IMG/VR virus record: IMGVR_UViG_3300009425_004205
Coordinates: 1 to 64,000 of that record
DNA: 64,000 nt
Strand: one strand, 5' to 3'
Source: a virus
Position 1 is the stretch's first letter; every line of letters begins with the position of its first letter. The notes under the pieces are model-generated. The model did not search any database and was not told the DNA's origin. It worked only from the letters and a program-made list of their open reading frames with translations. Position numbers and translations under genes: made by a program. This document shows, in pieces, positions 29,685 to 31,443 of this stretch.

Positions 29685-30580
29685 ATTTATTATTAGATAA
29701 TGTTGACGTCAGCTCAACGTCTGGCCCAAACCACTTTGGAAAAAAGCTAAAAAAGTATCTGAAGAAGAAAGGTGTTAAATTCGACAGTACTAAGAAGCCA
29801 GACATACAGCTTTCTTTTATAGAGTCTCGCAATGTGCTGCCACAGATTCCTATAATTCAGAGACTCGATGGAATATACTTTAATAAGACATTTGATTTTG
29901 GAAAGCAGAATTCAAATATTCTTAGTACGTACAAAGGCGCCAAGGGGGTTGTGTTCCAAACAGATTTCAACAGGAGATTGACATTTCAATATTTCGGATA
30001 TCATGAAAACTCAACAGTAATAAGGAACGGAGCTGATATGGAGTTGATATCAGAAGTCGAGCCGCTAAACAATGAACTGCTAGCTAGATATGAAAATGTC
30101 TGGTGTTGCGCTTCTTCCTGGCGCCCACACAAGAGATTAGAAGATAATATTAAATATTTCCTAAAGAAATCAGACAATAACGATTGTATGGTTGTTGCCG
30201 GTACAACAGACAGAGTAATTGAGCATGAAAGGGTGTATTATGCTGGAAACCTTCCAGTGGAGAAACTTTTGTCTCTTTATAAAACATCGAAATACTTTGT
30301 TCATCTCGCATGGCTCGATCATTGCCCAAATGTGGTTGCCGACGCGAGAGCTAGCGGGTGTGAAATAATATGCTCATCCACCGGAGGTACAAGAGAAATT
30401 GCGGGCCCTAATGCCCGTATTGTTATGGAAACGGAGTGGGACTTTTCTCCCGTAGACTTGTATGATCCTCCGAAAGTAGACTACAGTTACTCAACGATTA
30501 ACGGCGTAATCGGCGACAACAGTGTTGATATGACGTCGGTTTCTCAAAAATATTATAATTTCTTGGAGAAAAACATATGA
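29681..30580 (+). CDS. Glycosyltransferase (GT4-like)
   Basis: SGPNHF, SSWRPHKRL, DHCPNVVADARASG. Confidence 0.85.
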   Translation: MNLLLDNVDVSSTSGPNHFGKKLKKYLKKKGVKFDSTKKPDIQLSFIESRNVLPQIPIIQRLDGIYFNKTFDFGKQNSNILSTYKGAKGVVFQTDFNRRLTFQYFGYHENSTVIRNGADMELISEVEPLNNELLARYENVWCCASSWRPHKRLEDNIKYFLKKSDNNDCMVVAGTTDRVIEHERVYYAGNLPVEKLLSLYKTSKYFVHLAWLDHCPNVVADARASGCEIICSSTGGTREIAGPNARIVMETEWDFSPVDLYDPPKVDYSYSTINGVIGDNSVDMTSVSQKYYNFLEKNI

Positions 30581-31443
30581 AAACAATAAAAGGCTTGCTT
30601 TATGAGCCAGGGGTTAGTGTTTTGTGTGGCTCTTACAATGCAATGATAGCAAAGTTAGCCGAAAACGCAGGCTTCGATGGAGTTTGGCTATCCAGCTTTG
30701 AAATGCATGCATGGAATCGATTTCCTGACGCCTCTATTTTAAACGTTGCAGACTATTCTGACGCGATAAGTAAGATAAGTGATAGGATCAACGTACCAAT
30801 ATTGGTAGATGCAGATGAGGGCGGCCCTAGCGCTATAAACACTATTAGGATGGCTAGAGAATACTCGAAAGCCGGAGCCTGGGGCATGTGCATCGAGGAC
30901 AACCCTTCTCCAAAACGATGTTCTTTTTACGGAATGAAGATGGATTTAGAAAAGACAAGCATAATGGTTGGTAAAATAAAAGCTGCCATAGAAAAGAGCG
31001 GCAAAGATAATTTCGCAGTTATTGCAAGAACGGAGTCGCTAATACAGGGGCACGGATTCGACGTAGCAATCGAAAGAGCCAAGGCGTATACTGCAGAAGG
31101 CATTGATGGCTTCCTAATCCACAATAAAGACAACACTCCAGAGAATGTATTAAGATTTGCAGACATGTATCACGCGGCAGGTATGACAACTCCACTAGTT
31201 TGTGTACCGACTACATATAACCAAGTCACTGTTAAGCAATTAGGCGAAGCGGGGTTTAGCATGGCTATATATGCCAACTATTCAGTAAGAGCGGCAGTGA
31301 AGGCGCTTGAATCCATGTTCGAAAAAATGATAACTGGTGGCAGCCTATCTGCAGGAAACGAGGATGTTGTGCCTATGAGCAAGATATTTGACTTAATCGC
31401 GGTAGAAGAGCTTAAGGAAAATCAAAAGAAGTATGGCTCCTGA
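30577..31443 (+). CDS. pepM: Phosphoenolpyruvate mutase-like enzyme (ICL/PEPM superfamily)
   Basis: GFDGVWLSS, PILVDADEG, IEDNPSPKRCSF, IARTESLI, LIH, VPTTY, IYAN; directly upstream of Ppd and AEP-transaminase genes. Confidence 0.82.
   Translation: MKTIKGLLYEPGVSVLCGSYNAMIAKLAENAGFDGVWLSSFEMHAWNRFPDASILNVADYSDAISKISDRINVPILVDADEGGPSAINTIRMAREYSKAGAWGMCIEDNPSPKRCSFYGMKMDLEKTSIMVGKIKAAIEKSGKDNFAVIARTESLIQGHGFDVAIERAKAYTAEGIDGFLIHNKDNTPENVLRFADMYHAAGMTTPLVCVPTTYNQVTVKQLGEAGFSMAIYANYSVRAAVKALESMFEKMITGGSLSAGNEDVVPMSKIFDLIAVEELKENQKKYGS

Follow-up and report, generated by a model that had tools for sequence, protein, structure and literature searches.

A 64,000-nucleotide stretch of viral DNA (hereafter the window), which forms the first part of the 78,462-bp IMG/VR virus record IMGVR_UViG_3300009425_004205, carries at 30577..31443 on the plus strand a gene for a 288-residue protein with the fold of phosphoenolpyruvate (PEP) mutase (PepM). 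The gating loop of this protein, the lid, departs from the diagnostic signature of PepM at two positions, one of which is occupied by a cysteine. On the strength of sequence comparison, phylogeny and gene context, the gene very probably encodes a true, functional PEP mutase of a Cys-lid lineage, which would feed an aminoethylphosphonate-glycan pathway of the phage. The protein belongs to the clade formed by PepM and phosphonopyruvate hydrolase (PPH), apart from the lyases, by sequence, tree and predicted fold; beyond this placement, we infer the mutase activity, the takeover by the cysteine thiol of the phosphoryl-positioning role of Asn122, the product of the pathway and its biological use.

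The lid is EDNPSPKRCSFY (codons at 30895..30930, plus strand; residues E107-Y118), as read from the translation and from alignment to the loops of PepM, PPH and methylisocitrate lyase (MICL). HMMER alignments to solved structures run without gaps across the lid and pair it with EDKRFPKVNSF of PepM 5unc, EDKLFPKTNSL of PepM 1m1b and EDKTFPKDTSL of PPH 2dua. In the numbering of the Mytilus enzyme, Lys116 is exchanged for Asn (N109, codon 30901-30903) and Asn122 for Cys (C115, codon 30919-30921), and the adjoining R114 and Y118 correspond to T121 and H125, respectively. According to MAFFT alignments, the K-R-C of the lid shares its columns with the K-R-C of the MICL loop EDQVGAKRCGH. The Mg2+ ligands D51, D78, D80 and E107 (Mytilus D58, D85, D87 and E114) are kept in the ungapped 1m1b alignment, and so are the binders of the phosphoryl and carboxylate groups S39, K113, S116, R151 and H182 (Mytilus S46, K120, S123, R159 and H190) as well as the equivalent of W44. 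In addition, the strings FLIHNK, VPTTY and IYANY are all present in the protein. A second clade-specific departure is situated beside the Mg2+ ligands, at residues 77-85 (30805-30831), where the phage clade reads VDADEGGPS and nearly all other PepMs, whether Cys-lid or canonical, read D-x-D-[TNS]-G-[YF]-G. An exchange G47S was considered as a compensating change and set aside, its association with the lid type being partial only (11 of 20 Cys-lid members vs 17 of 87 canonical ones).

Family scores and the predicted fold agree in placing the protein, a TIM barrel of the PepM/PPH type, next to PepM. The Pfam family PF13714 is matched at 134 bits (E 6.6e-39; cut-off 31.5 bits), and the best matches among PDB entries are PepM 5unc, the closest solved relative (E 6.7e-58), PPH 2dua (3.5e-43) and PepM 1m1b (4.6e-37), with MICL entries at 1e-25 or weaker. 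The top-scoring NCBIfam model is that of PepM, TIGR02320, with 219.3 bits; the cut-offs of the models for PPH (TIGR02321, 155.7 bits vs 374.4), prpB (TIGR02317, 145 bits vs 354) and carboxyphosphonoenolpyruvate (CPEP) phosphonomutase (TIGR02319, 105.9 bits vs 420) are not reached. An AlphaFold2 (AF2) model built from an alignment of 92 sequences has a mean predicted local distance difference test (pLDDT) score of 97 and, compared at the level of the fold, superimposes on PepM 5unc with a template modelling (TM) score of 0.95 and a root-mean-square deviation of 1.3 A, on the oxalate-bound Mytilus PepM 1pym with a TM score of 0.93, on PPH with 0.92 and on methylisocitrate lyases with 0.82-0.87.

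Three trees were calculated after removal of the loop columns, namely a FastTree phylogeny of 154 sequences, an IQ-TREE phylogeny of 87 sequences under LG+G4 and another of 89 sequences, including four lyase outgroups, under LG+C20 PMSF. A branch with a support of 96-98 (98 with the four lyase outgroups) sets the lyases apart from the PepM/PPH clade that holds the protein. The first-pass annotation, made from the letters of the sequence alone, had described the K-to-N and N-to-C exchanges in the lid together with its part-likeness to the KRCGH loop of MICL, had listed LIH, VPTTY and IYAN as retained and had proposed a divergent PepM clade, to be placed by a phylogeny with PepM, PPH, MICL and CPEP mutase; the HMMER and MAFFT alignments agree with its reading of the lid, and trees, PDB matches and alignments uphold its placement in the form of a conserved, divergent lineage inside the PepM/PPH clade and not among the lyases.

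On the outgroup-rooted trees, the EDN-type sequences, with Cys and Asn forms mixed, form a basal polytomy, within which a nested clade holds nearly all canonical EDK..NS sequences plus the PPH-like EDK..[TS]S sequences. Two of the latter (P0193 and P0170) fall inside the canonical EDK clade, far from the Cys-lid lineage. The Cys forms do not constitute one clade, since well-supported branches force at least 5-7 changes, and their monophyly received a p value of 0.024 in an approximately unbiased (AU) test, for a group that was defined after the tree had been seen. On the EDN background, Asn has given way to Cys, or Cys to Asn, several times over; this pattern fits functional equivalence, and the two residues may well do the same job. 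The rooted trees are only suggestive of the K-R-C lid as an ancestral state retained from lyase-like ancestors, given that the sequences were sampled for their resemblance to the query, that support along the backbone is 80-97 and that the root lies on long outgroup branches.

The altered lid is strongly conserved. A collection of 5.8 billion proteins yielded 120 closest clusters of 65-100% identity, mostly from marine metagenomes including Tara, and all 120 keep the pattern EDN[PT][SCT]PKRCSF. N109, R114, C115 and Y118 are invariant among them, in a protein in which just 78 of 288 columns are invariant overall, and the catalytic residues other than those at K116 and N122 are invariant as well (H190 in 119 of the 120). 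At the codon level, a comparison of 12 viral and 77 bacterial genes revealed synonymous variation at N109 (AAC/AAT), K113 (AAA/AAG), R114 (up to five codons) and C115 (TGT/TGC). Since the codons turn over synonymously and the lid stays the same even in relatives of 65% identity, its amino acids are under purifying selection. The Cys lid is neither a chance variant nor a sequencing error.

Moreover, the Cys lid extends well beyond viruses. The pattern EDNxxPKRCS[FL] occurs in many representatives at 32-51% identity within a library of 50%-identity representatives, and when GTDB was scanned by pattern, with each species represented by a single genome, at least 420 bacterial species genomes proved to encode Cys-lid relatives. 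These belong to the Actinomycetota (Acidimicrobiales, Solirubrobacterales and Frankiales), Acidobacteriota, Myxococcota, Planctomycetota and Binatia, and comprise a cultured carrier in the Myxococcota, Minicystis rosea DSM 24000. Hence, the variant is not specifically viral. Among non-redundant representatives, the cysteine travels with a particular set of neighbours: the residue before it is Arg in 18 of 20 Cys-lid sequences vs a mixture of R, T and V in canonical ones, the third residue past it is Tyr in 20 of 20 vs I, L or V, and the seventh is Arg in 18 of 20 (Met in the phage clade) vs Q or H. Pattern scans of IMG/VR, with locus counts that are limited by the patterns used, returned 12 Cys-lid loci (this record and 11 further contigs), two EDN..NS loci and 30 canonical ones. 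The two EDN..NS loci (L121, 3300033148_004210, and L122, 3300005663_000753; ~6540-7850) are cytidylyltransferase-PepM fusions with the lids EDNIFPKSNSL and EDNVYPKTNSL, in which Lys is exchanged for Asn and Asn122 is kept; a Ppd gene (for phosphonopyruvate decarboxylase) follows each, and a strict EDK filter would skip both.

The strongest argument for mutase activity comes from genomes that carry the Cys-lid gene and no other candidate. Five Cys-lid genomes, namely three actinobacterial metagenome-assembled genomes (MAGs), the complete 16-Mb chromosome of Minicystis rosea and a 6-Mb Binatia chromosome assembly, were searched with PF13714, and no EDK..NS PepM was found by this search in any of the five, the sole gene of the PepM/PPH clade being the Cys-lid one. 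The remaining PF13714 matches were EDQ..KRCGH lyases, ED[YW]D-type proteins and PanB. All five genomes encode Ppd, adjacent to the Cys-lid gene in four and elsewhere in the Binatia assembly. Because Ppd needs phosphonopyruvate and no other gene of the PepM clade is there, the Cys-lid enzyme would be the only candidate source of this substrate in those five genomes.

Because the PepM reaction has its equilibrium far on the side of PEP, genes for PepM are coupled to those for Ppd. In the window, the PepM gene is directly followed on the plus strand by a split Ppd, consisting of an alpha-like subunit with the N-terminal thiamine pyrophosphate (TPP) domain (31433..31831; PF02776; TIGR03297, 99.5 bits) and a beta-like subunit with the C-terminal TPP domain (31803..32297; PF02775; TIGR03297, 92.6 bits over positions 170-286), the likely true start of which is the ATG at 31821. 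The stop of PepM and the start of PpdA overlap by 11 nt, which fits translational coupling. Reading the split enzyme as a sulfopyruvate decarboxylase was tried and rejected on scores, Ppd being higher for the alpha subunit (99.5 vs 64.6 bits) and, marginally, for the beta subunit (92.6 vs 89.9 bits).

The same arrangement recurs in phages and bacteria. The order PepM-PpdA-PpdB-aminotransferase-cytidylyltransferase is found in nine of the nine further IMG/VR contigs that extend far enough downstream, each with the lid EDNPSPKRCSF, and an identical order, split Ppd included and often with LicD, in 19 of the 19 closest bacterial loci (Actinomycetota, 48-56% identity). Across the bacterial loci more widely, Ppd lies within 8 kb in 48 of 80. 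The Cys-lid domain also occurs fused to a PntC-type NTP_transf_3 domain (P0123, P0125, P0128 and P0130) and to the N-terminal TPP domain of Ppd (P0133). Five genomes in which no Ppd is adjacent (four Binatia chromosome assemblies and one Polyangiaceae MAG) encode it elsewhere, whole or split, and one of these five was covered by the screen for canonical PepM described above. The Ppd and transaminase context named by the first-pass annotation is present, and the adjacent ppd genes it proposed to look for among EDNxxPKRCS homologues do exist, as do fusions, so that the general lack of ppd neighbours that would have spoken against its reading is not what the homologues show. As a separate observation, nine Binatia loci (L049, L051, L059, L060, L067, L071, L077, L079 and L081) and several from Polyangiaceae encode a fusion of Cys-lid PepM to a PntC-type nucleotidyltransferase with no Ppd within 8 kb; split or whole Ppd resides megabases off or on another contig, an unusual unlinking of the first two pathway steps. 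On the tree, the viral clade (support 99) is sister to an actinobacterial clade (99), the two being joined at a support of 93-95. Since gene order is common to both and they are sister clades, the cassette has moved as a unit between phages and such bacteria, in one direction or the other.

Downstream of Ppd, the cassette of the window continues on the plus strand with a 2-aminoethylphosphonate aminotransferase (AEPT)-like gene of the PhnW/AepZ type (32251..33318, likely start ATG at 32278; TIGR03301, 149.7 bits, below cut-off; weak PF00266) and a cytidylyltransferase of the PF01467 type (33245..33664; E 8.5e-21; TIGR00125 above cut-off), a putative analogue of the phosphonate-activating PntC and Fom1-CyTase enzymes. 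These two open reading frames (ORFs) overlap by 74 nt (33245-33318) and the TIGR03301 match stops at residue 318 of 355, so that the last ~37 residues of the aminotransferase may be read-through rather than functional sequence. Then follow a protein of unknown function, a B12-binding radical SAM protein, a LicD-like phosphotransferase (35943..36644; weak match to the cholinephosphotransferase model NF045866, 48 bits), which would putatively attach the CMP-activated phosphonate to a glycan, and an FkbM methyltransferase. The cassette is preceded by glycosyltransferases. In several of the other loci, actinobacterial as well as viral, LicD homologues come next after the cassette. The radical SAM protein (34315-35964) reaches 570.5 bits against NF038361, the 'Sden_1168 family B12-binding radical SAM P-methyltransferase' (cut-off 575), far above any other listed class B model, and 88 bits against PhpK. 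Because this protein comes near the cut-off of a P-methyltransferase model and is sited within the cassette, the phage may make, instead of plain 2-aminoethylphosphonate (AEP), a phosphonate that carries a methyl group, or even a phosphinate.

For the Cys-lid enzyme, the following course of events is proposed. The enzyme would bind Mg2+-PEP in the manner of canonical PepM, whereupon the lid would close and the thiol of Cys115, buttressed by Arg114 and Tyr118, would stand in for the amide of Asn122 beside the migrating phosphoryl group, which is presumably held by R151 and H182. Phosphonopyruvate formed from PEP in this way would be removed at once by the translationally coupled split PpdAB, thereby pulling the unfavourable equilibrium forward. 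The resulting aldehyde would subsequently be transaminated to AEP and activated with CMP, and the activated phosphonate might serve, together with the flanking glycosyltransferases and LicD, to build, in the course of infection, a glycan decorated with phosphonate. The later part of this route, to AEP, CMP-AEP and phosphonoglycan, is predicted from family assignments, mostly below curated cut-offs.

Several points weigh against this proposal. The diagnostic EDK-X5-NS motif fails, the loop reading EDN-PSPKR-CS with both K116 and N122 replaced, and the equivalog cut-off of TIGR02320 (319.55 bits) is missed by 100 bits. Asn122 is reportedly important for catalysis, according to site-directed mutagenesis of Mytilus PepM, and PPH differs from PepM at this same position (Thr), so a change there could alter the chemistry; furthermore, the aligned cysteine is the catalytic acid/base of C-C lyases. 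The assignments of Ppd, AEPT and LicD all fall under curated cut-offs, and because the virus record is ~43% complete (CheckV), a canonical pepM may be located elsewhere in this phage or its host. If the chemistry were indeed different, the protein might act as a PPH-like hydrolase of phosphonopyruvate or PEP, or as a lyase or decarboxylase with the lid cysteine as acid/base, and thus compete with the pathway or edit it. Such a role would accord with the missed TIGR02320 cut-off, with the alignment of K-R-C to the catalytic K-R-C of MICL and with the fact that PPH departs from PepM mainly where the cysteine stands here (EDK..TS). It is nevertheless quite unlikely, as the PPH-like P0193 and P0170 nest in the distant canonical EDK clade, the Gly-His that follows the cysteine as a hallmark of lyases is absent, the branch supported at 98 keeps the lyases apart, and a phosphonopyruvate hydrolase fused or coupled to Ppd would be senseless in a genome with no other PepM.

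Two further possibilities retain mutase activity and assign a special part to the cysteine. In one, which we consider unlikely, the enzyme would form a transient thiophosphoryl intermediate or subject C-P synthesis to a redox or thiol switch. The coupling of the cysteine to the Tyr three residues on and to the preceding Arg, the invariance of Cys and Tyr in the 120 viral clusters and the location of the cysteine in the lid, which shuts over the phosphoryl group (1pym/1m1b alignment), are compatible with it; however, sequence data do not tell a new mechanism from a simple substitution, and the repeated Asn/Cys swaps in the EDN background fit functional equivalence better. The other goes further and is likewise unlikely: the Cys lid (EDN...KRCS-Y) might represent an ancestral C-P mutase with the lyase-type K-R-C, from which EDK...NS is a later derivative, with the cysteine playing a catalytic or regulatory part (through a transient thiophosphate or a redox gate) by a mechanism that differs from the Asn122-assisted dissociative transfer of the Mytilus enzyme. 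Finally, the gene might be an inactive or decaying PepM remnant carried as passive cargo, as the loss of two textbook-motif residues could indicate. This is highly improbable in view of an intact frame, an active site that is invariant in 120 clusters with only 78 of 288 columns invariant overall, lid codons that turn over synonymously, an operon conserved in phages and bacteria and a predicted fold of high confidence.

As a probable Cys-lid PEP mutase, the phage protein can be compared with several known systems. With canonical PepM (PepM/Ppm/AepX, EC 5.4.2.9; Mytilus edulis 1PYM/1M1B, Streptomyces platensis 5UNC) it shares the fold (TM 0.93-0.95) at 30-36% identity, the Mg2+ ligands and the equivalents of R159, H190, K120, S123 and S46, and likewise the Ppd partner, the AEPT and cytidylyltransferase neighbours and, in bacterial relatives, the kinds of domain fusion; it differs in the lid, which reads EDN-x2-PKRCS-[FL]-Y in place of EDK-x-FPK-x-NS-[FL]-[ILV]. 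PPH (PalA of Variovorax sp. Pal2; 2DUA/2HJP; TIGR02321) is of the same clade and fold (E 3.5e-43, TM 0.92) and also departs at Asn122; however, it combines EDK with Thr whereas the phage protein combines EDN with Cys, and PPH-like forms branch within the canonical PepMs. Furthermore, PPH is found in catabolic phosphonoalanine contexts, as opposed to the Ppd, AEPT and cytidylyltransferase context of the phage protein. The 2-methylisocitrate/isocitrate lyases (PrpB 1MUM; EDQxxxKRCGH) have K-R-C in the same columns of the mobile loop and the fold of the superfamily (TM 0.82-0.87), whereas the phage lid carries EDN where they have EDQ, its cysteine is followed by Ser-Phe in place of Gly-His, and the LIH, VPTTY and YAN of the PepM/PPH type are present. 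At the level of the cassette, the window exhibits the same enzyme set and logic as bacterial Pnt clusters (Ppm-Ppd-AEPT with PntC and a LicD-like protein; PMC6697681, PMC8942020), and the closest bacterial loci (MAGs of Acidimicrobiales, Solirubrobacterales and Frankiales) are identical in gene order, split Ppd included. The phage cluster is distinguished from Pnt clusters by its location in an uncultured marine myovirus, its Cys-lid first enzyme and the B12-radical SAM protein between cytidylyltransferase and LicD.

The long ORFs of the window all lie on the plus strand and include those for a baseplate wedge protein and PhoH. Because these two are present and the baseplate protein shares no more than 31% identity with those of deposited or cultured phages, the record is assigned to an uncultured marine myovirus. 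A tblastn search of 50,697 deposited phage records with the PepM homologue found no close relative, all matches being at or below 34% identity, namely prpB on a misfiled Acinetobacter contig, two gut contigs and the PepM of Vibrio phage Va2. The latter, a cultured phage of Vibrio alginolyticus (MW073017.1), has an annotated 434-residue PEP mutase and a TPP-binding protein (5944-7248 and 1143-2243) with ribonucleotide reductase genes between them; the mutase is only 25% similar to the window protein, and Va2 possibly offers an experimentally tractable phage phosphonate system. A read lookup for 30577-32297 listed no RNA run and only four marine or seawater DNA runs, with small word shares. Two other ORFs of the window, both on the plus strand, deserve mention. 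The 334-residue product of 9038-10042 matches phrog_1211, '2-aminooxy adenylosuccinate synthetase' (E 6e-72), a PurZ-like adenylosuccinate synthetase homologue that possibly hints at 2-aminoadenine (Z-base) DNA or purine salvage in the phage, and a single ORF for 3,461 residues occupies 44209-54594 directly upstream of the baseplate genes.

The Cys-lid lineage matters for the way in which phosphonate producers are counted. A perfect EDKX5NS match was demanded by four surveys between 2019 and 2025 (PMC6697681; PMC8942020; PMC8931226, Acker 2022; PMC12723261, 2025). Rice 2019 (PMC6697681) noted 22 fused sequences lacking the motif and set them aside, and Li & Horsman 2022 (PMC8942020), with the strict filter, recorded a single Ppm in the MAG of a giant virus and none among RefSeq viruses or among 364 huge phages. 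Because the Cys-lid lineage fails both EDKX5NS and the TIGR02320 cut-off (219 vs 319.55 bits), it is filtered out of PepM surveys, as the first-pass annotation had anticipated. Its further suggestion, that viral phosphonate capacity is under-counted, stands with a qualification: judged by the pattern-limited IMG/VR count, roughly one viral PepM locus in three would be lost to a strict filter, but the variant is not specifically viral and the mutase activity of these loci is as yet a prediction. A literature search, with subscription papers outside its reach, found no paper on the Cys-lid form and no characterised member.

Marine surveys use EDKX5NS-based censuses to trace where the large pool of phosphonates within dissolved organic phosphorus comes from. 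Should the Cys-lid lineage prove active, such censuses omit at least 420 bacterial species genomes and an abundant marine phage clade of at least 120 clusters at 90% identity, many of them from Tara. With regard to the enzyme, activity would mean that a C-P bond can be formed without Asn122 and Lys116 and that a natural intermediate exists between the lid of C-C lyases and that of the mutases, so that the lineage constitutes a natural experiment on the roles of these two residues. The finding would correct a field-wide filter and add phages and several bacterial phyla to the phosphonate producers, leaving the known chemistry in place. For the biology of the phage, an active enzyme would mean that, in the course of infection, the virus itself controls the committed step of phosphonate synthesis.

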